Assembly (NCBI GenBank): GCA_029258835.1 | Contig: JAPDJY010000048.1 | Span: 33,195-57,194, forward strand | Direction: 5' to 3' | DNA: 24,000 nt | DNA from: Thermoproteota archaeon | GTDB lineage: Archaea; Asgardarchaeota; Jordiarchaeia; Jordiarchaeales; Freyrarchaeaceae | Shown here: in pieces, positions 7,951-20,146 of the stretch | Position numbering within the stretch: position 1 is the stretch's first letter | How the letters are laid out: the number at the start of each line of letters is the position of its first letter | Program-made: the position numbers and the translations under genes | Notes under the pieces: generated by a model | What the model was told of the DNA's origin: nothing | Databases searched by the model: none | What the model saw: only the letters and a program-made list of their open reading frames with translations

Positions 7951-9426
7951 TTGAGACTTCTTAACGATCACGTGTGCCCTATATGCGGGAATGAAGAGGT
8001 GAGTTATTACTGCGAGTCATGTAGCTCTCTTTTTTGTACTTCATGCGTTAAGGTTCTAAAGACAAACTACGCAGTGTGTGATACTTGTGGAACCATTTAC
8101 CATTTAGACCCTCCCTTGAATAAACCGTTTTTCTGCAAGTCGTGTAAGGGTACTGTCTTTAGGGTTGGTGTTAAGAGATCTCTTCTTTGTCCTCAATGCG
8201 GCTCAAATAATGTAGTGAGTGTGCTTAGAAAGAAAGAATTACAACTGAGTAGGGTTAAAGGCCTCGGAAGCGACTTCCTCGATGTTTCCCCGTTTATGAT
8301 GAATGTCTTAAATGCTCTCTCAAAGATTAAAGCTCGTCTTCTGAAGCTTAGAAGAAACGGTTTTCTTCATCACCCTGACCTTGAAGAAGCAATTATAAAC
8401 TCTTATGTCTCTTTTTCATCACTTAAACTTAAGGCTCTTTCTAGAGTAGAGCGAATAGTAAGTGGGTTAGCCTCCAGCATCATTAACCTCTTTAGGGAAT
8501 GGTCTCCTCTGAAAATTAAGGAGATAGACGCTTACCTTGACCAAGTTAGTGGTGCTGTAGAGGAGTATAAAGGATTCGTGAAAGATGAATGCCAAAGCAT
8601 CATAAGCAAAATACGTGAAGTAAGCGCAGTCATAGAATACCTGGAATTTCATCATAACTTCTTTGAACGTTTTAAGAGCATACTCGACTTAAAGGATCAT
8701 GAAAGGCCCGTTTGCGTTATTCCTGAAGTCAAGTATACTGGCAGCGATTTTCTCTCTTCAGACAAAGGTGAAGGCTTATTATTCTTTACAAGTGAACGAG
8801 CCATATTCATAAGGCGGGAAGGGCTTCTTAAGAAGATGTTTAAAAGGCAGTTTAGTTTCCCATTAAACGATGTTGAACTTTTAGTTAAACGTGGTCTGCG
8901 GCGTGCTTTTATCCTTAAAACGGGCAAGGGGAAGGTCTGCTTTACGTCTTCAAGGCATGTTATAGAAAAAATTGAATCTTACTTTGAACTGGCAAAAAAC
9001 TTTAAGTCTCTCTCTTTGGCAGATGATACATTAACAAAAAGGCTTGAATCCATGAGTGTAGGCTTAAATGATTTCAAAAGAAAAATAACGTCTCTAATGC
9101 ATTCGCTTTTAAACCCAAAGAAAGCTGAATCTGAACACTCTCAACAAGTTCCTTCCCATCTTAACATTCCCTTTCCCCCTTCGCTCCCTCCCCCCCGCCC
9201 TTCTTGCTCAGTAATTCCACCTTACAGAAACGAGAATGACCGTAGAAAAGAGCTTCTCCTTCTAGAGAAGGAGAGGTTCGCGGTGGAGCAGAACCTCAAA
9301 AAACTCGAAGAGTTATGGGATAAAGGAGAAATTTCACTTGAAGACTACTTTAAACTTTCAAGGAAATTCAAGGGTGAACTTTACGAGCTTAACGCCAAAA
9401 TTCAGGAATTGACGTGCCGCCTCTAG
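7951..9426 (+). CDS. Hypothetical multidomain protein: triple zinc ribbon, helical region, PH/GRAM-like domain, Pro-rich linker, SHOCT-like C-terminal helix
   Basis: The TTG start lies 7 nt after AAGGTGA (7937-7943). Six CxxC pairs occur at C9/12, C21/24, C29/32, C43/46, C62/65 and C80/83. Residues about 255-347 (GEGLLFFTSERAIFIRREG...RAFILKTGKGKVCFTS) read as a PH-like fold. A Pro-rich stretch IPFPPSLPPPRPSCSVIPPY follows. The tail is LKKLEELWDKGEISLEDYFKLSRKF. The domain calls rest on pattern recognition only. Confidence 0.8.
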   Translation: MRLLNDHVCPICGNEEVSYYCESCSSLFCTSCVKVLKTNYAVCDTCGTIYHLDPPLNKPFFCKSCKGTVFRVGVKRSLLCPQCGSNNVVSVLRKKELQLSRVKGLGSDFLDVSPFMMNVLNALSKIKARLLKLRRNGFLHHPDLEEAIINSYVSFSSLKLKALSRVERIVSGLASSIINLFREWSPLKIKEIDAYLDQVSGAVEEYKGFVKDECQSIISKIREVSAVIEYLEFHHNFFERFKSILDLKDHERPVCVIPEVKYTGSDFLSSDKGEGLLFFTSERAIFIRREGLLKKMFKRQFSFPLNDVELLVKRGLRRAFILKTGKGKVCFTSSRHVIEKIESYFELAKNFKSLSLADDTLTKRLESMSVGLNDFKRKITSLMHSLLNPKKAESEHSQQVPSHLNIPFPPSLPPPRPSCSVIPPYRNENDRRKELLLLEKERFAVEQNLKKLEELWDKGEISLEDYFKLSRKFKGELYELNAKIQELTCRL

Positions 9427-9440
9427 CATCCTCTTCCTAA

Positions 9441-10088
9441 TCATCCTTTCTCCTCGGCTTTCTCCTTTTTCTCTCCTTCTTCAAGCTCCTTCCTTAAGCT
9501 TTCTAGGTCTTCTAGAAGTACTTCCTTGTCGGGTATTGGCGGCTCCGTTGGGACTTCCGGCTCTTTAACCCCCTCGAGAGCTATTTCCGCTTCAAGTTTG
9601 TCCAACTCGGCGCTTACGTCTATGCCCTCCCCCATGCTTACCGGCGATGACAGTAACTCTCCGCTCCTATCTATTTCCTCCATCATCTGTTCGTGCCTTA
9701 TAGTCATCTCCATTATTTCATCCGAGCTGGCAAGCTTCATTGCGTCTTCCATGATCTTCCCAGCAGCAGCAACGCTTTCCTTAACCTGCACTATGTCATG
9801 GGCTTGCTCTATAGCGAAAAGCCGTGTTTCAAGGTTCTCTATAAACCCGGCATACCTGTTAAGGGCATTTAGATAGAAGTGGTATCGCCTCAAAGCGAGT
9901 TCAGCACCTTTTCTATTACCCGCTCTAAGATACATTTTCGCGGTTTCTCTAGCCCTTCTCGCCTGTTGCTCATACCTCTTTGACTTAGCGATTAAATTGT
10001 TTATGGTAGCCCTTATCTCACTAATTATTTGATCTCTGCTCTTAGGTCTCTTACCAAACAGCTTGTCTTTTAAGCTCATTCGAACCAT
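9441..10088 (-). CDS. ESCRT-III / Snf7 (CdvB-like) superfamily protein, paralogue A
   Basis: It shows MSLKDKLFGKRPK.., then a long helical hairpin with tip ..AKMYLRAGNRKGAELALRRY.., then IEQAHD..V..ESVAAAGKIMEDAMK, acidic helices (ELDKLEAEIALEG), and a Pro-rich and helical tail EPEVPTEPPIPDKEVLLEDLESLRKELEE. The likely true start is the second ATG (10079, giving MSLK..). Confidence 0.8.
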   Translation of the reverse strand: MVRMSLKDKLFGKRPKSRDQIISEIRATINNLIAKSKRYEQQARRARETAKMYLRAGNRKGAELALRRYHFYLNALNRYAGFIENLETRLFAIEQAHDIVQVKESVAAAGKIMEDAMKLASSDEIMEMTIRHEQMMEEIDRSGELLSSPVSMGEGIDVSAELDKLEAEIALEGVKEPEVPTEPPIPDKEVLLEDLESLRKELEEGEKKEKAEEKG

Positions 10089-10108
10089 TTTCCCCCTTCA
10101 TGTTCCAG

Positions 10109-10116
10109 TATAAATA
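10109..10116 (-). promoter_or_regulatory. Putative TATA box (minus-strand TATTTATA) for ESCRT-III paralogue A
   Basis: The A/T box lies 21-28 nt upstream of ATG 10088, within the 73-nt gap after the ATPase stop. It suggests an internal promoter and a near-leaderless transcript. Sequence only. Confidence 0.4.
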
Positions 10117-10161
10117 GCACATAACTACTAATTAAATCTCTCTCTTAAGGCACGTAGCGGC

Positions 10162-13125
10162 TTATCCGCTTCCTAACATCCTCCTAAGCTCTTCTATCTT
10201 CTTGAACGCCTTCTTCCTAAGGAAGCTATACTCTTCCTCGGTCATCCTACCAAGCAAGTAATACTCGTGTAAACTTCGAAGATACTTCTGGATTCTTCCA
10301 ATTTTCGAAATAATTTCCTCATCGCTCATCCCTTCTCTTGCAAGCTCCCTTCCTAATCGTGTTTCTCCTTCGGCACTCGCCTTAACCTCCACTTTCCCTC
10401 TTTCAGCACTTTCATCAACACTAGGCTTCTCCCTTACCATCATGCTTACCGCTTTCATTTCTTTCTCCTCTTTTCCTTTCCTCCTTTCCACCTTGACTTT
10501 TGGTGGCGGAATCCACCCTCCTTCTCTACTAATCTCTTGGAGAATGTTTTCTATCAATTCTTTGGCCGTCATTGCTTCCCCTTTGCTTGGCGCTGTGACC
10601 TCAAACGCTATTACTGATGCGGTGTTGGTCCAAGCCAAGCTAAATCCTATTCTAACGTTTCCTTTCTGTCCCAGAAAAACTAGGGCATCCCCCTCTAAGC
10701 AAGTGAGCTCCCAGCCTTGAAGCGTGAGCTTCTCTCTTAACGTAGAAAGCATCTTCTCAGGGTCTACTCTGAGAGCCTTCTGAAAGTTTACCCCTTGAAT
10801 CTTGGAAGATGGGTAAAGGTACTCGTTAAACCTATACTTTATAAGCCTTGAAAGATAGTCTCCTGCCAAGTCATCCGAAACGTCTAATATCGGAATTCTC
10901 TTTTTAGCAACACCAACCCTCTCCTCACCACCAACCATCCCAACTCCACTTTCATCCATCTTAACTTCCACTTTCTCCCCTATTTTTTCTGGAATCAAAG
11001 ATGTAACTTCTTCGCTTCTCCCCTCCTCCAAGAGAGAGGCCGATCCTGGCCTGGCTAGTCCTGGTATAGCCTCCCTGCCAGCATGTTGGCTTTGCCTAGG
11101 CCTAATCTTAACCGCTAAAACCCGTCCTGTATCTATCGAAGCATCCGAGATCAAAGCCATACCTATAGGGATCCTACGTATAAAGTCTCTTGACATCTCT
11201 TGGGGGACCTTATTTGGCGATCTTCGCATGAACGCCTCTATATCCGCCTCAAATGTTAAATAATGTGTAATTATCATGTCAACTTGAGACAGGATTTGGT
11301 CGCTGGTTGCTGAGGGTTGCTGGGTGGCTAGAACTAAAGCGCACCCCGGCTTTCTTCCAAGCTTAGCATACTCTATTAACGGTCCAGAAGCAGCCGTCTC
11401 CCCCCTAGCAGGGGCAAGTATATGTGCCTCATCGACCATTAGCCAAGTGACAGGGATCTCTTCCTTAATAGCGCCCACGGAACCAAACTGTAATCCCTCC
11501 TCCCTCCTCGCCAGCTGCATCCTCTTCTCAAGTATCTTCCTTGCCAGTAACCCAACAACTAGCCCGCGCAGCCCCTCTGTTAAATAGCTTACATCAACTA
11601 CAGTAACCATATTTGGAACGGCAATTTGGTCTAATGGAGTTCCTTCCCGGGAAAATATCCCCCATTCCTTTGCAGATAAAAGTCTAGAAATGACGGCCCT
11701 CCTAGTGTCGGTTCTGAAGCCTCTGTCTTTAGAAAGAAGTTCTAGAGACGTTTCAACACATTTGATCATGTCGTCTATGGTGTACTCGTCTCTCTTCCCC
11801 TCCACCCTAATTTTCTCGTCTCCTTCAACTGCTTCATACCCTTCTCTTACCTGTATTAGGGCACGTTCAAGCAGTAATCCCATAGCGCCGAATCTCTCCA
11901 CTCCGAACGCATAGCACCAGTCATCTACTGTTAGGTCGGAAGGCTTTATAGAGAACGCCATATCCCTCGTAGCATCAGGCAGCTTATCGTAGACGCCTAA
12001 AGGCACGAGCACTCTGATGTTGGTAAACCCTCGAGGCTTAAGCCCCCATCTTCTAAGCTCTTCAACTTCCTTCTCCTCCCTGTTTGGATACTTCATACTC
12101 CAGAAAATCCCCACCGGATCTACTATTACAACTGCTAACCCTAAGCCTGACCTTGCAAGCTCCTCAGCTAAAACACCCATCGTGTAAGACTTACCTGACC
12201 CACGCTGGCCACATATGAATATAACGTGTGGTTTAAGGGCATCCACTAGAACAGGTTTGCCAAGGAAATTATTTTCTTCCGCCCGCTCACATATACATCC
12301 AATGTACATAAGCCCCTTAGCACCGAAGGTTTGCAACTTATCCCTACTTCTACCAAGCACAACCCCTTCCCCTACCGGATCCTCAAGAACCCTAAGCTTC
12401 GAGGAAACCTCCAATGGTTCCTTTACGATTCTTCCTCTCTCCTCCTCTCTAACTTTTAATTCTCCTAGAAATGCAGAGAAGCGGCGCCACATCCCCTCGT
12501 CATAGAAGTTTAATGACTCAAATATCATATCCCTAGCTTTTTCATCCTTTGGATACACGTCTACTTCAAAGCCACATAACTCCCAGCATGATACGGCTAC
12601 ATCGCTCTCACTTAATCCCTTTCTACCCAGCTCCTCAACGGCTCTCTCAAAGTACTCGCTTTTTCTGGTAGCTCCGTAAAGTATCAGCAATCCCTTCGCT
12701 TTTTCTTCTTGAGGAAGTTGCTCAACCATTTCTCTCATCTTAGAAAGGATCTCCTCTTTTCCACTCCTTCGAAATTCTTCAAGGAGAACTCGGAGGATTT
12801 GTAAGTCCACAGGTTTCGTGCGAAACGCGTACTCAACCATTTTACTTAAGGCATTTTTAACATCGTCTAAGCCCTGCCCATCAACTTGGAGAATGAGTCT
12901 GAACGCGTGGGCAAGGGATGAAAGGTCATTTTCAAGTTCTCTTCCCTCTAAAATATTCTTTGCAAGCTTCACCGCTCCCTTCCTTGCCCTTTCAAGGTAC
13001 TCATCCATTCCAGTAAGCCGGTAGGCGATCAACAACGCGTTAATGATGTCGCTACTAAGCTTCACGTCTTTAAGTGCTTCTAGGGAAACATATAGAAATT
13101 CGTAAATCGGTCTACCTCTTTCCAA
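10162..13125 (-). CDS. 987-aa HerA/FtsK-superfamily (DUF87-like) P-loop ATPase with a helical N-terminal extension and a C-terminal extra domain plus SHOCT-like tail
   Basis: Walker A is LKPHVIFICGQRGSGKSYT (GQRGSGKS at 12187-12210). Walker B is VTWLMVDEAHILAP (11422-11445). It is followed by KLGRKPGCALVLATQQPS and VDMIITHYLT, the layout I associate with HerA/COG0433. Residues 1-230 are helical repeats. Residues 745-870 form an unassigned alpha/beta region. A K/E-rich linker leads to the tail LRSLHEYYLLGRMTEEEYSFLRKKAFKKIEEL. Confidence 0.85.
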   Translation of the reverse strand: MERGRPIYEFLYVSLEALKDVKLSSDIINALLIAYRLTGMDEYLERARKGAVKLAKNILEGRELENDLSSLAHAFRLILQVDGQGLDDVKNALSKMVEYAFRTKPVDLQILRVLLEEFRRSGKEEILSKMREMVEQLPQEEKAKGLLILYGATRKSEYFERAVEELGRKGLSESDVAVSCWELCGFEVDVYPKDEKARDMIFESLNFYDEGMWRRFSAFLGELKVREEERGRIVKEPLEVSSKLRVLEDPVGEGVVLGRSRDKLQTFGAKGLMYIGCICERAEENNFLGKPVLVDALKPHVIFICGQRGSGKSYTMGVLAEELARSGLGLAVVIVDPVGIFWSMKYPNREEKEVEELRRWGLKPRGFTNIRVLVPLGVYDKLPDATRDMAFSIKPSDLTVDDWCYAFGVERFGAMGLLLERALIQVREGYEAVEGDEKIRVEGKRDEYTIDDMIKCVETSLELLSKDRGFRTDTRRAVISRLLSAKEWGIFSREGTPLDQIAVPNMVTVVDVSYLTEGLRGLVVGLLARKILEKRMQLARREEGLQFGSVGAIKEEIPVTWLMVDEAHILAPARGETAASGPLIEYAKLGRKPGCALVLATQQPSATSDQILSQVDMIITHYLTFEADIEAFMRRSPNKVPQEMSRDFIRRIPIGMALISDASIDTGRVLAVKIRPRQSQHAGREAIPGLARPGSASLLEEGRSEEVTSLIPEKIGEKVEVKMDESGVGMVGGEERVGVAKKRIPILDVSDDLAGDYLSRLIKYRFNEYLYPSSKIQGVNFQKALRVDPEKMLSTLREKLTLQGWELTCLEGDALVFLGQKGNVRIGFSLAWTNTASVIAFEVTAPSKGEAMTAKELIENILQEISREGGWIPPPKVKVERRKGKEEKEMKAVSMMVREKPSVDESAERGKVEVKASAEGETRLGRELAREGMSDEEIISKIGRIQKYLRSLHEYYLLGRMTEEEYSFLRKKAFKKIEELRRMLGSG

Positions 13126-13133
13126 CTAATACG

Positions 13134-13139
13134 CCTCCC
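13134..13139 (-). promoter_or_regulatory. Shine-Dalgarno-like GGGAGG 8 nt upstream of the ATPase TTG start
   Basis: The reverse complement of CCTCCC at 13134-13139 is complementary to the archaeal 16S 3' end. It supports TTG 13125 as the start and co-transcription with the upstream ESCRT-III gene. Confidence 0.5.
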
Positions 13140-13178
13140 TTTCAGAGGAAAATTCTGAAAGAAGAAATGATGTTGCCG

Positions 13179-13805
13179 TTAAAGCTCTTCCTTAAGCTTC
13201 TTTATATCCTTCTCAAGCTCTGCGATTTTACCTGCAGGAACAGAAGGAAGCTTCACACCCGTTTCAACACCTATCTCTTGATCTATCTCTGAAAGGGTTT
13301 CAGCTACCTCCTTTGAGGTCACATCGGTTGAAACAGTCATCCTCTCAAATCCAGCTTCCGTCACATCTTGAGCTATATCAAACTCCTGCATTGAAGCATC
13401 GATCTCATCTACAAGCTGCGAAATGTCCGGGAGATTAACCGTGCTTTTTAACCCTTCCAATGCTGCCCTAATACCAGAGAGAGTGCTTGCGACCTCGTAA
13501 ACGGACTGGCTCTGCCGTAGTTTAACAACCATCCCGTGAATTCTAAGCCTATAAGAATCAGTAGCTAAAGCCCATTTTTGATATCTCAGGTAATGCTCAG
13601 CATACATCTTCGCCGCCTCATTATTACCCATCATGCGGTAACGCTTCGCTTCCTCCCTGTTCTTCCTAGCCTCCCTTTCCAACTGTTTCTTATGGTATTC
13701 AAGTTTCCTCGTGAACACTTCAAGCTTGAAAATCACGTCTTTAAGTTTTGGGCCACCCTTAAGCCAGTTTATGAACTTCCTTAGCGACATAGAAACCACC
13801 AGCAT
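13179..13805 (-). CDS. ESCRT-III / Snf7 (CdvB-like) superfamily protein, paralogue B
   Basis: It shows MSLRKFINWLKGGPK.., then a hairpin with tip ..AKRYRMMGNNEAAKMYAEHY.. that I could align by eye to paralogue A. It continues with ..VASTLSGIRAALEGLK.., acidic helices, and the tail GVKLPSVPAGKIAELEKDIKKLKEEL. The likely true start is ATG 13790 (MSLR..). Confidence 0.75.
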   Translation of the reverse strand: MLVVSMSLRKFINWLKGGPKLKDVIFKLEVFTRKLEYHKKQLEREARKNREEAKRYRMMGNNEAAKMYAEHYLRYQKWALATDSYRLRIHGMVVKLRQSQSVYEVASTLSGIRAALEGLKSTVNLPDISQLVDEIDASMQEFDIAQDVTEAGFERMTVSTDVTSKEVAETLSEIDQEIGVETGVKLPSVPAGKIAELEKDIKKLKEEL

Positions 13806-18816: not shown

Positions 18817-20146
18817 TTGCTTTTCTTCGCAGATTTACACATCCACAGCAAGTATAGTAGAGCTACTAGTTCAAGCATGGACTTGCCGATCTTGTACTCA
18901 TTCGCCAAGGTAAAGGGGCTTAACCTACTCGGTACAGGAGACTTTTCTCATCCTAAATGGCTTAAAGAAGTTAAAGAGCAGCTGGAGCAGATAAACGATT
19001 CTGGCTTTTACGTATTAAAAGGAAAAGGAGACGTTTACTTCCTCTTAACGAACGAGGTCAGCACTAACTTCCAGTTCGAAAAGGAAACTAAAAAGATCCA
19101 CCATTTACTCATAGTTGAAAGCTTCGACGTGGTAGATCAGGTGAACGAGGCTATTAGCAAGTACGGGGATTTAAAGTCCGATGGAAGACCTGTGTTAAAC
19201 TGTACCCCCGCCGAACTCGTGGAAACCATTATGGAATTAGACCGTAACATACTGATCGTCCCAGCCCACATCTGGACGAGTTGGTTTGGCGCCCTTGGAG
19301 ACAAAGGTTTTAACAGCTTAGAGGAATGCTACGGGGATCAAGTGAAGCATATTCATGCCATTGAGACGGGGCTAAGCTCCGACCCGCCGATGAACTGGAG
19401 GCTGAGCAGACTTGACAAGTACGTCCTTATAAGCAACAGTGACGCCCATAGCCCTTGGTCTTGGAGGCTAGGCAGAGAAGCAAACGTTTTCCATCTTGAT
19501 ACCCTTTCATTCAGGGAACTCGTAAACGCAGTGAAGAGAAAAGATAGGCAGAAAATTCTTATGACTATTGAAGTCAGCCCGGAGTACGGAAACAATCCCC
19601 TTTAGAGGGGTAGCCGTAAAATACCACTATGACGGGCATAGAGGTGACCGACAAGGACATAACGGCATAGACGTGTGCATGCATCCTAGAGAAGCCATGA
19701 AGCACCATAACATTTGCCCTGTATGTGGGAAAAAGTTAACTATAGGAGTGCAGCATAGGGTAGAGGAACTGGCCGATAGGGAGGAGGGGTTTACCCCCAA
19801 AGATTTCATACCATTTAAGAGGCTGATCCCATTAGCTGAACTAATAGCCGTGGCAACCGGAACAGACAACCTCCACGCACGAGCGGTCAGGTTAGAGTAT
19901 GAACGCCTCATAAAGACGTTCGGGAACGAGTACAAGGTTCTTCTGGAAGCACCACAGCAAGAACTCGAAAAGGTAACACATCAGAGAATAGTGCAACTTA
20001 TACTTCTTAATAGAGATGGAAAAATAAAGATAAAACCCGGATTCGATGGTGTTTACGGAAAAATAATATTAGAAGACACCGTCAAGGACGAACCAGAAAA
20101 ACTTTCTTGGAAAACAGGTCAACAAAGTTTAGACAGTTATTTCTAA
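18817..20146 (+). pseudogene. endoQ: Endonuclease Q (PHP domain plus Zn ribbon) interrupted by a +1 frame change at 19591-19605; a pseudogene, a recoded gene or an assembly error
   Basis: The N-terminal part (18817-19605) has FADLHIHSKYSRA, VPAHIWTSWF and SNSDAHSP, then a TAG stop. The remainder (KYHYDGHR, ICPVCGKKLTIGVQHRVEELADR, PGFDGVYGKI) continues in the +1 frame to 20146. Confidence 0.75.

Follow-up and report, generated by a model that had tools for sequence, protein, structure and literature searches.

The region analysed here is the ESCRT-III core locus of an Asgard archaeon; the source lineage of the window (the whole 24-kb stretch of DNA under analysis) is Freyarchaeia (= Jordarchaeia). 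Its two ESCRT-III genes and the zinc-ribbon adaptor are ordinary, and the unusual part is a HerA-family ATPase encoded between the ESCRT-III genes. The conserved presence of this ATPase in an ESCRT-III locus goes unmentioned in the ESCRT papers searched, ESCRT-IIIA, ESCRT-IIIB and the adaptor being already known. We favour, with modest confidence, the explanation that the ATPase is an accessory hexameric translocase coupled to ESCRT-III, possibly acting on DNA, in a lineage that has kept Vps4.

Components of the ESCRT-III core locus

The open reading frame list places the four genes as in the original prediction, three on the minus strand (208 aa, 13179–13805; 987 aa, 10162–13125; 215 aa, 9441–10088) and one on the plus strand (491 aa, 7951–9426). 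The 14 nt between the convergent stops of the 491-aa and ESCRT-IIIB genes (9427–9440) and the GGGAGG lying 8 nt 5' of the TTG start of the ATPase gene were also correctly described. The core genes named as flanks, trmY and psmA, are present, together with ribosomal proteins and ProRS, and the GC content is even over the region. The 24-kb window holds neither a Vps4 nor a CdvA gene, as had been stated, and ESCRT-II and ubiquitin genes are absent from the cluster in this genome. The AAA+ gene at 59–1810 encodes a double-AAA Cdc48-type protein.

Both small proteins had been predicted to be ESCRT-III subunits, and the Pfam Snf7 scores (71 and 67.9 bits against a gathering score of 27.3 bits) confirm it. 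The higher-scoring one (13179–13805, minus strand) is ESCRT-IIIA, a Vps2/24/46- or CHMP1/2/3-like Snf7 protein whose closest PDB relatives are CHMP1A/1B, CHMP3, and CHMP2A. The other (9441–10088, minus strand) is ESCRT-IIIB, Vps20/32/60- or Snf7-like, and is closest to Heimdallarchaeota ESCRT-IIIB (9ftl), a Vps20/32/60-like structure (9fn1), and yeast Snf7. Judged from sequence, the pair represents the canonical Asgard ESCRT-IIIA and ESCRT-IIIB paralogues. The MSL[KR] N-termini noted earlier match internal MSL methionines at which the public gene calls begin (203 aa from 13790 and 212 aa from 10079), and the true starts are probably 13790 for ESCRT-IIIA (MSLRKF...) and 10079 for ESCRT-IIIB (MSLKDK...). 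The ESCRT-IIIA C-terminus carries the motif IAELEKDIKKLKEEL, kept in 9 orthologues, which we take to be MIM1-like on comparison by eye with the MIM1 motif. On comparison of the tails, the Pro-rich tail of ESCRT-IIIB (EPEVPTEPPIP) is MIM2-like. Conservation of these MIM1-like and MIM2-like tails argues that an MIT partner is still in use. Reading of the upstream sequences revealed a TATA-like box, CTATTTATAC, before the ESCRT-IIIB gene and none in the 53-nt gap between the ESCRT-IIIA and ATPase genes, where an RBS is present; these two genes are probably co-transcribed.

The 491-aa protein (7951–9426, plus strand) is an Asgard-specific adaptor, recognised by its CxxC pairs, Pfam matches, and Vps23-like C-terminus. 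Three Zn ribbons, corresponding to six CxxC pairs, are followed by a helical region, a putative PH-like β-rich region (~250–345), a linker rich in Pro, and, at the C-terminus, a coiled coil with a steadiness-box-like hairpin (~426–487). Pfam gave weak hits to zf-B_box, DZR, and Zn ribbons. The C-terminus is 32–38% identical to the Vps23_core region of Helarchaeota UEV proteins (E 3e-9 to 9e-9), and the family profile matches the yeast Vps23 C-terminus weakly (2caz, 2p22, 2f66; E 0.4–0.6). An Asgard protein with Zn ribbons, PH, coiled coil, and steadiness box has been described as a putative ESCRT-I component (Makarova et al. 2024, PMC11188069), and the sequence of the 491-aa protein fits membership of this class. 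Of the earlier Zn-ribbon/PH-like/SHOCT label, the Zn ribbons stand and the PH-like region agrees with the published class, and SHOCT is withdrawn, as no Pfam SHOCT hit was obtained at E ≤ 1. Its proposed part as a recruiter in place of CdvA gives way to that of a putative ESCRT-I component (PMC11188069), not CdvA-like.

The Asgard ESCRT system comprises ESCRT-IIIA/IIIB, Vps4, ESCRT-II/Vps25, ESCRT-I-like proteins, and ubiquitin machinery (Hatano et al. 2022, PMC9192718; Makarova et al. 2024, PMC11188069; Souza et al. 2025, PMC11804906). The present locus resembles it in having a single ESCRT-III gene of each type, A preceding B, and an adjoining Zn-ribbon/PH-like/coiled-coil/steadiness-box adaptor, with Vps4 and Vps25 in the lineage. 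It differs in that Vps4, ESCRT-II, and ubiquitin genes lie outside the cluster and in that a HerA-family ATPase, missing from canonical Heimdallarchaeota loci, splits the ESCRT-III pair. ESCRT-III-family polymers are shared with the CdvA-CdvB-CdvC system of crenarchaea and thaumarchaea. Unlike that system, the window has no CdvA, the sole similarity being a sub-threshold coiled-coil match (E 0.02–0.95, 10–15 bits; cut-off 30). With the NCBIfam CdvB equivalog the score is 14 bits against 370, and both ESCRT-III proteins belong with the eukaryote-like A and B types.

A HerA-family ATPase with lineage-specific domains

DUF87, Foldseek, and the Walker motifs identify the 987-aa protein (10162–13125, minus strand, TTG start) as a HerA/FtsK-superfamily P-loop ATPase, bearing out the original assignment to this class and not to AAA+. 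It scores 51.2 bits with Pfam DUF87 (HerA central; gathering score 23.2) and also matches the HerA_C signature, and its AlphaFold model aligns with subunits of solved HerA hexamers (Foldseek E ~1e-15). An AAA+ reading was rejected, since the AAA match (PF00004) reaches merely E 0.13 and is confined to the P-loop. GQRGSGKS (Walker A), VDEAH (Walker B), and TQQP are invariant in an alignment of 21 homologues, and on sequence grounds the enzyme is catalytically intact. The TTG start is supported by conservation of the MERGRP N-terminus in homologues.

The model and Foldseek delimit a β-rich segment (probable HAS barrel) and RecA-like ATPase core at residues ~238–685 (11071–12414, minus strand), which align with HerA chains over 430–525 columns. 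Homologues in Hadarchaeota, Thermoplasmata, Thermococci, and Methanofastidiosa share 47–54% identity with the core. HerA-NurA is a DNA end-resection complex. As in its HerA subunit (Sulfolobus 4D2I, Thermococcus 9X1M, Deinococcus 7WRX), the RecA-like core follows a β-rich domain and carries DUF87 and HerA_C signatures, and the protein is presumably a hexameric ring translocase; the structural match (Foldseek E 1e-15, TM up to 0.56 on the target) comes with identity of merely 13–19%. It departs from HerA in scoring 49 and 41 bits with the NCBIfam HerA equivalogs (cut-offs 970 and 800), in lacking NurA, Mre11, and Rad50 neighbours at the loci examined, and in having an additional 235-aa N-terminal α/α domain and a C-terminal α/β domain. 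FtsK, the DNA translocase of the bacterial divisome, belongs to the same ATPase superfamily. In contrast to FtsK, the locus ATPase has no transmembrane anchor, no detected γ/winged-helix domain, and no Pfam FtsK_SpoIIIE hit, and its partner is ESCRT-III, not FtsZ.

The N-terminal domain (residues 1–235; 12421–13125, minus strand), characterised by AF2 modelling, Foldseek, and phmmer, consists of twelve helices in an (α/α)6-toroid-like fold (pLDDT 91.4). Model and Foldseek/Pfam searches ruled out a MIT domain. The best Foldseek matches, to GH76 (TM 0.60), GH88, and LanC-like proteins, are weak (E ~1e-2), and phmmer against 1.8 billion representative proteins returned 3 hits, all in the same ATPase family. 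Y35, Y150, W181, Y191, P192, and R198 are invariant. These searches indicate that the domain is specific to the Asgard ESCRT-linked ATPase clade. A C-terminal α/β domain (residues ~751–868; 10522–10875, minus strand; model pLDDT ~80–90) is conserved throughout that clade in the alignment, with R760 and Y764 invariant, and had no Pfam hit. The alignment and model also define a C-terminal helical hairpin (residues 935–985; 10171–10323, minus strand) with a 'G+MTEEEY'-type motif, restricted in the alignment to the Freyarchaeia/Jordarchaeia orthologues (P0001–P0006 only). Neither the steadiness-box profile nor Pfam SHOCT matched it.

LanC-like toroids form a central substrate-binding pocket, and the FtsK-HerA superfamily includes protein-secretion ATPases. 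An ESCRT-III-coupled ATPase could then move protein, not DNA, recognising ESCRT-III or cargo tails and serving as a second remodeller or cargo loader, on the model of the FtsK/SpoIIIE-type EccC/EssC ATPases of type VII secretion, which recognise protein substrates. The LanC-like resemblance of the N-domain makes peptide binding conceivable, and the gene linkage described below would serve this reading as well as the preferred one. We nevertheless consider it unlikely: every one of the nearest solved folds is a HerA protein that translocates DNA, and similarity to EssC/EccC is not significant (NCBIfam EssC, 11 bits).

Conservation of the ATPase/ESCRT-III linkage

A Snf7 gene adjoins the ATPase gene at 19 of 23 Asgard-type loci, which differ in their flanks, compared with 0 of 23 loci of non-Asgard homologues. 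The order ESCRT-IIIA, ATPase, ESCRT-IIIB, and convergent adaptor recurs in other Freyarchaeia/Jordarchaeia. Hod- and Helarchaeota have Vps4 divergent from ESCRT-IIIA-ATPase followed by ESCRT-IIIB or a 344-aa gene, in ESCRT-II/ubiquitin clusters, and Heimdallarchaeota-labelled MAGs have ATPase, the 344-aa gene, and ESCRT-IIIB. Intergenic gaps are short (6–76 nt in many loci). The points on which the original prediction had staked itself, namely Snf7 identity, conservation of the Snf7-ATPase-Snf7 order in related genomes, and orthologues standing apart from NurA/Mre11/Rad50 or conjugation genes, all held, the last two in the orthologue loci examined. In a rough neighbour-joining tree of the core, the ESCRT-linked ATPases of Frey-/Jord-, Hod-, and Helarchaeota form one clade, with the Heimdall-labelled, ESCRT-IIIB-linked ATPases just outside it. 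The ESCRT-adjacent ATPase belongs to an Asgard-specific clade whose N- and C-terminal domains are its own. The main texts of the Asgard ESCRT papers searched make no mention of this ATPase.

The linkage might instead have arisen by historical or regulatory accident, with the ATPase performing an ESCRT-unrelated housekeeping function, perhaps in DNA metabolism, that it shares with its homologues in Euryarchaeota, Hadarchaeota, and DPANN, and merely being in one operon with ESCRT-III in some Asgard lineages. High conservation of its core extends to many archaeal phyla in which no Snf7 gene lies nearby; the wider family occurs broadly across the three groups just named, likewise with no Snf7 neighbour, which implies that its ancestral job was unrelated to ESCRT. 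Some homologues contain inteins, typical of essential housekeeping proteins, and the gene recurs beside Cdc48 in non-Asgard and Heimdall-type loci. Heimdallarchaeota AB_125 and LC_2 have canonical ESCRT loci in which Vps24 directly adjoins Vps20, no ATPase lying between them, so the ATPase is not a universal Asgard component. Against this, its adjacency to ESCRT-III persists across at least four different sets of flanking genes, with every other neighbour varying, the ESCRT-linked clade has gained unique domains at both its N- and C-termini, and the gene is inserted between ESCRT-III paralogues that otherwise adjoin. We regard an accident as a serious contender, though an improbable one.

Derivation from a defence system or mobile element (HerA-Sir2, HerA-DUF4297, MADS-like, or conjugative VirB4-like) inserted beside ESCRT-III was suggested by PADLOC hits to mad8 (62 bits) and several defence HerA models, and by weak NCBIfam anti-phage HerA and VirB4 hits. 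All scores fall far under the family cut-offs (e.g., 36 against 850 bits), and no Sir2, DUF4297, or nuclease effector lies nearby in the window or in the relatives' loci. Together with the core-gene flanks, the even GC content, and the stable position of the ATPase over Asgard classes, this makes such an origin very unlikely.

Relation to Vps4 and proposed role

At least one Vps4 is tabulated in each of seven Atabeyarchaeia/Freyarchaeia genomes, with one Vps24-type gene (0 in one genome), one Vps20-type gene, and one Vps25 per genome (Valentin-Alvarado et al., PMC11291895 supplement). In Hod- and Helarchaeota, the divergent MIT-AAA Vps4 gene lies directly beside the orthologous ESCRT-IIIA-ATPase unit, within the ESCRT-II/ubiquitin cluster. 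It follows that the ATPase is an addition to Vps4. The original prediction had seen a non-canonical module without Vps4, in which a HerA/FtsK-type pump replaces it and the 491-aa protein recruits instead of CdvA. The absence of Vps4 and CdvA genes from the window and the position of the ATPase between both ESCRT-III genes spoke for that view. Given an Asgard lineage with canonical ESCRT-IIIA/-IIIB, the two Vps4 observations above, the MIM-like tails retained on both ESCRT-III proteins, and an N-domain that is not MIT, it is already largely refuted, and we hold it to be very improbable. The ATPase resembles Vps4/CdvC, the MIT-AAA+ disassemblase, in lying beside ESCRT-III genes, and differs in being HerA/FtsK RecA-like, not AAA+, in having no MIT domain, and in co-occurring with genuine Vps4 in relatives.

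In the accessory-translocase explanation that we prefer, established ESCRT knowledge suggests that ESCRT-IIIB would nucleate on the membrane, recruited by ESCRT-II/Vps25 or by the PH/steadiness-box adaptor, and would in turn recruit ESCRT-IIIA, with polymer remodelling by a Vps4 encoded elsewhere in the lineage. Possible coupling of the ATPase to ESCRT-III is read from gene order only. The ATPase would form a hexameric ring docked onto the ESCRT-III assembly by its N-terminal α/α toroid and/or its C-terminal domain, and a ~345-aa helical partner protein, found in many relatives, may help. At the membrane neck, the ring would use ATP to thread a polymer, by analogy with HerA and FtsK most likely DNA, through its pore. 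The logic proposed here, a DNA pump at a membrane-constriction machine, would be that of FtsK, a likeness that is functional speculation. The HerA-type ATPase would thus be an accessory to Vps4, no substitute for it, either clearing DNA from the scission site or loading it into the bud, and the coupling of scission to DNA translocation is a possibility.

Genes of the locus and the ESCRT-III pair

All four genes predicted for the locus are reproduced exactly in the ORF list: the 208-aa ESCRT-IIIA (13805-13179, minus strand), the 987-aa ATPase with a TTG start (13125-10162, minus strand), the 215-aa ESCRT-IIIB (10088-9441, minus strand), and the 491-aa adaptor (7951-9426, plus strand), which is convergent on ESCRT-IIIB. 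The GGGAGG motif 8 nt upstream of the ATPase TTG and the 14 nt separating the convergent stops of ESCRT-IIIB and the adaptor were likewise read in the sequence. The TTG start is supported because homologues share the N-terminal MERGRP. In public gene calls, the two small Snf7 genes begin at internal MSL.. methionines, yielding proteins of 203 and 212 aa. By eye, the 53-nt gap upstream of the ATPase (13126-13178) contains a ribosome-binding site only, and the region upstream of ESCRT-IIIB (10089-10161) contains a TATA-like box (CTATTTATAC) and a GGGGGA ribosome-binding site. This arrangement suggests that ESCRT-IIIA and the ATPase are co-transcribed and that ESCRT-IIIB is under its own promoter. 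Base composition is uniform over the region, and the flanks carry core genes encoding proteasome α, SUI1, TFB, a TrmY-type methyltransferase, TauE, S26e, and ProRS, together with a Cdc48-type double-AAA protein (59-1810). Two ORFs downstream of ProRS (18817-19605 and 19568-20146) have no Pfam match, and in the contig's precomputed annotation, MJ0043_C is assigned to one neighbouring product.

Both small proteins proved to be ESCRT-III proteins, as predicted. ESCRT-IIIA and ESCRT-IIIB score 71 and 67.9 bits against Pfam Snf7 (PF03357; cut-off 27.3) and cover positions 6-170 and 2-170 of the 171-position profile, respectively, which is the full helical core. Types were assigned by the closest PDB relatives, the A type comprising Vps2/24/46 and CHMP1-3 and the B type Vps20/32/60, Snf7, and CHMP4-7. 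Among all PDB sequences, the best relatives of ESCRT-IIIA are CHMP1A/1B, CHMP3, and CHMP2A, and those of ESCRT-IIIB are Heimdallarchaeota ESCRT-IIIB (9ftl), a "Vps20/32/60-like" Asgard protein (9fn1), and yeast Snf7. These relationships identify the two proteins, at the sequence level, as canonical Asgard ESCRT-IIIA and ESCRT-IIIB. The C-terminal end of ESCRT-IIIA, IAELEKDIKKLKEEL, is kept in 9 orthologues, and ESCRT-IIIB contains EPEVPTEPPIP. Judged by eye against the consensus patterns, these segments may resemble MIM1 and MIM2, the motifs bound by the MIT domain of Vps4.

The original prediction had stressed that no Vps4 or CdvA is present. Asgard archaea carry a eukaryote-like ESCRT set, and this observation must be read differently because the window is from an Asgard genome. 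At the level of 90% identity, proteins of the window cluster with entries deposited as "Candidatus Freyrarchaeum guaymaensis" and "Candidatus Freyarchaeota archaeon". The nearest homologues of the ATPase carry Jordarchaeales or Jordarchaeum labels, and Freyarchaeia and Jordarchaeia are one Asgard class under two names (PMC11291895). Seven Atabeyarchaeia/Freyarchaeia genomes tabulated in the supplement of that study each have one Vps24-type gene (none in one genome), one Vps20-type gene, one Vps25, and one or more Vps4 (PMC11291895). Given these counts, the organism probably has no canonical ESCRT-III pair besides ESCRT-IIIA and ESCRT-IIIB, and Vps4 is encoded elsewhere in the lineage. The matter of Vps4 in Jordarchaeia is settled by Valentin-Alvarado et al. 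(PMC11291895) and not by the text or supplements of Eme et al. 2023.

The adaptor carries six CxxC pairs in residues 9-83, with three N-terminal zinc ribbons; 6 homologues keep the last three pairs unchanged, and Pfam gives weak zf-B_box, DZR, and Zn ribbon matches. These are followed by an extended helical segment, a β-rich region and then a helix, a Pro-rich linker, and a C-terminal coiled coil. No Pfam match covers residues 245-360, where the β-rich pattern and the helix after it are consistent with a PH domain. At 32-38% identity (E 3e-9 to 9e-9), residues 426-487 can be aligned with the C-terminal ends of three Helarchaeota UEV-domain proteins whose genes lie in ESCRT clusters. In one of these proteins, the aligned part overlaps a Pfam Vps23_core (steadiness box) match at residues 253-296 (E 3.9e-5; 24 bits, slightly under the cut-off of 26.8). 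A profile of six adaptor-family members weakly matches the yeast Vps23 C-terminus in three PDB entries (E 0.4-0.6). The adaptor was thus found to have a C-terminal coiled coil with a steadiness box. Makarova et al. 2024 (PMC11188069) present the combination of three Zn ribbons, a PH domain, a coiled coil, and a steadiness box as the Asgard-specific and probably ancestral architecture of a putative ESCRT-I component; in their tables, the neighbours of Vps24-Vps20-Vps4 in Heimdallarchaeota AB_125 include a gene listed as "triple Zn ribbon fused to PH". The architecture of the adaptor, with a putative PH domain, fits this Asgard Znr_PH_CC_SB protein (asCOG cog.011556 / cog.006820).

Two large database searches, with the single sequence and then with a profile, found no adaptor relatives outside Freyarchaeia and returned 3 homologues only. 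The SHOCT domain (PF09851) originally proposed for the adaptor was not borne out, with no Pfam match at E<=1 in the adaptor as a whole or in the C-terminal hairpin of either the adaptor or the ATPase. Identity with CdvA was rejected as well, since PF18822 reaches 9.9-15.2 bits against a cut-off of 30, over the C-terminal coiled coil only, and the CdvA equivalog NF041007 reaches 13 bits against a cut-off of 350. A P[ST]xP motif in the Pro-rich linker is not kept among homologues.

Class and domain organization of the ATPase

Assignment of the ATPase to the HerA/FtsK class rather than to AAA+ held up. It scores 51.2 bits against PF01935 (DUF87/HerA central; cut-off 23.2), and PF00004 (AAA) matches at E 0.13 over the P-loop only. 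In a Foldseek search against the PDB, HerA chains make up all of the best 50 matches (E 1e-15 to 4e-11, probability 1.00), at 13-19% identity and including HerA-NurA and the Sir2-HerA and DUF4297-HerA defence complexes. GQRGSGKS (Walker A) and VDEAH (Walker B) are invariant in 21 homologues; because these motifs and many core residues are invariant, the ATPase should be active. It differs from Vps4/CdvC, which has an AAA+ fold and an N-terminal MIT domain, in its HerA-like fold and in having no Pfam MIT match.

HerA proper, the end-resection helicase of the HerA-NurA pair, lies in an operon with NurA and usually with Mre11/Rad50. The ATPase reaches 49 bits against NF040819 (cut-off 970) and 41.5 bits against NF040937 (cut-off 800). 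In line with the original expectation, neither NurA, Mre11, or Rad50 nor conjugation genes were found adjoining ATPase orthologues in 46 loci or in annotated contexts. With equivalog scores this far under the cut-offs and none of NurA, Mre11, and Rad50 nearby, the ATPase is not orthologous to HerA proper.

The AlphaFold model of the full ATPase (mean pLDDT 78.8) has six regions: an N-terminal domain of 12 helices (residues 1-235), a β-rich segment with the RecA-like core (residues about 238-685), a disordered linker, an α/β domain (residues 751-868), a second linker, and a C-terminal helical hairpin (residues 935-985). The N-domain modelled by itself has a pLDDT of 91.4 and weakly resembles (α/α)6-toroid enzymes, namely GH76 (TM 0.60), GH88, and LanC-like proteins, at E about 1e-2. 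This 12-helix, α/α toroid-like model (pLDDT 91) rules out an MIT-like domain. In a HMMER scan of 1.8 billion representative proteins, the N-domain was found in this ATPase family only. The alignment shows the C-terminal hairpin confined to Freyarchaeia/Jordarchaeia ATPases; the idea that it is a steadiness box joining the adaptor was rejected (profile best E 13, pairwise E 0.3).

The wider ATPase family is strongly conserved over archaeal phyla and uncharacterised. Some of its core homologues (among P0073, P0082, P0093, P0113, P0035, P0036, P0041, P0057, and P0058) carry additional segments: several, some of them labelled Diapherotrites or Micrarchaeota (DPANN), contain inteins (PF14528/PF14890), and in others, one of which is labelled Thermoplasmatota, DUF835 is fused to the N-terminus.

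Gene neighbourhoods in related genomes

We took 46 loci from genomes limited to one per species and clustered every ORF in them; 23 loci are Asgard-type and 23 contain non-Asgard homologues. Snf7 adjoins the ATPase in 19 of the 23 Asgard-type loci, and several of the other 4 lie on contigs that stop at or just past the ATPase. No Snf7 gene adjoins the homologue in any of the 23 non-Asgard loci, and these homologues have only the core in common. Gene order of ESCRT-III and the ATPase is therefore kept in related genomes, as had been anticipated. Other Freyarchaeia/Jordarchaeia have TauE-TrmY-ESCRT-IIIA-ATPase-ESCRT-IIIB-<adaptor-PsmA, and a second Jordarchaeia clade has ESCRT-IIIA-ATPase-344aa-ESCRT-IIIB-<adaptor, where 344aa denotes a predicted helical protein that the window does not encode. 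Helarchaeota, including Hel_GB_B, have UEV ... Vps4< >ESCRT-IIIA-ATPase-ESCRT-IIIB. Hodarchaeota-labelled and related MAGs have ESCRT-II<Vps4< >ESCRT-IIIA-ATPase-344aa, followed by genes for an Arf-like GTPase, RING, ubiquitin, E2, and E1, and Heimdallarchaeota-labelled MAGs have ATPase-344aa-ESCRT-IIIB-<Cdc48. Hatano et al. 2022 (PMC9192718) show the Hel_GB_B locus in a drawing that gives colour to no genes other than those of Ub/ESCRT. A rough neighbour-joining tree of the ATPase core places the ESCRT-linked proteins of Freyarchaeia/Jordarchaeia, Hodarchaeota, and Helarchaeota in one clade, with the Heimdallarchaeota-labelled group beside it. The ATPase is widespread and not universal, because in the canonical Heimdallarchaeota AB_125 and LC_2 loci, as listed in the Makarova tables (PMC11188069), Vps24 and Vps20 are adjacent without it.

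A defence or mobile-element origin of the ATPase is unlikely, since its flanks are core genes, its position is stable, and its scores are sub-threshold.

Asgard-type ESCRT-III/ATPase loci also occur under the names Deferrimicrobium, Bathyarchaeia, and Korarchaeota (loci L016 and L037; homologue P0125, HDD69287.1), on contigs that are probably mis-binned or mislabelled. In Jordarchaeia RPF2 (L013:14683-15303, minus strand), a gene about 2.5 kb from the adaptor gene encodes a 206-aa protein that weakly matches MIT (E 5e-4) and faintly HEPN; nothing corresponding to it was seen in the window.

The 344-aa (~345-aa) gene lies directly after the ATPase in 15 Asgard-type loci of the 46 clustered (L004:9633-10667, L012:3885-4922, L028:10725-11753, and 12 other loci) and occurs in neither the window's clade nor Helarchaeota. 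Its ORF abuts or overlaps that of the ATPase in several loci, and the protein probably partners the ATPase as a subunit. Helices alone are predicted for it, and neither Pfam, the PDB, nor PADLOC gives a match, so a NurA-like nuclease is unsupported.

Proximity of HerA-like and Cdc48-type genes is recurrent. A Cdc48-type double-AAA gene is convergent with, and immediately after, the ATPase module in Heimdall-type loci, and one also immediately follows non-Asgard ATPase homologues in Theionarchaea and Thermococci. Such genes were seen at L028:13628-15829, L032:11084-13309, and L042:4639-6864 and in L025, L030, and L041. In the window and in L003, the Cdc48-type gene is several kb off, on the psmA side.

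Possible role of the ATPase

The proposal that the HerA-type ATPase replaces Vps4 fails because Vps4 co-occurs with it, often directly adjoining. The best reading is that the ATPase would act as an accessory, ESCRT-III-coupled ring translocase. DNA is the favoured substrate by analogy, on the ground of every solved close fold and of FtsK, a DNA pump stationed at a constriction machine. Alternatively, the ATPase may move a protein substrate, or it may adjoin ESCRT-III without functional coupling. If the adjacency is functionally meaningless, the locus amounts to the known Asgard ESCRT cluster in dispersed form.

It is possible, but rather doubtful, that the accessory translocase truly is an ancient fifth component of Asgard ESCRT-III, a ring docked on the polymers (with the ~345-aa helical partner in many lineages) that links membrane scission or budding with the transport of DNA or some other polymer, that has no eukaryote or Cdv counterpart, and that was overlooked because studies colour only eukaryote-like genes. 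A full-text literature search of incomplete coverage found no paper discussing a HerA/FtsK/DUF87 ATPase in Asgard ESCRT loci. Such an ATPase goes unmentioned in the main texts of Makarova 2024 (PMC11188069), a 2025 review, Hatano 2022 (PMC9192718), and Souza 2025 (PMC11804906). ESCRT-IIIA/B, the Zn-ribbon/PH/steadiness-box adaptor, and the Freyarchaeia ESCRT complement are already described.

Interest in Asgard ESCRT stems from its place as the prokaryotic root of eukaryotic membrane trafficking and abscission. If the fifth-component reading is true, a conserved, non-eukaryote-like motor wired into an ESCRT-III operon would offer a concrete, testable handle on the cellular role of Asgard ESCRT; possibilities include a link between the membrane neck and DNA, as with FtsK in bacteria, or DNA-containing vesicles. 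It would also mean that the ancestral Asgard machinery included components later lost by eukaryotes.
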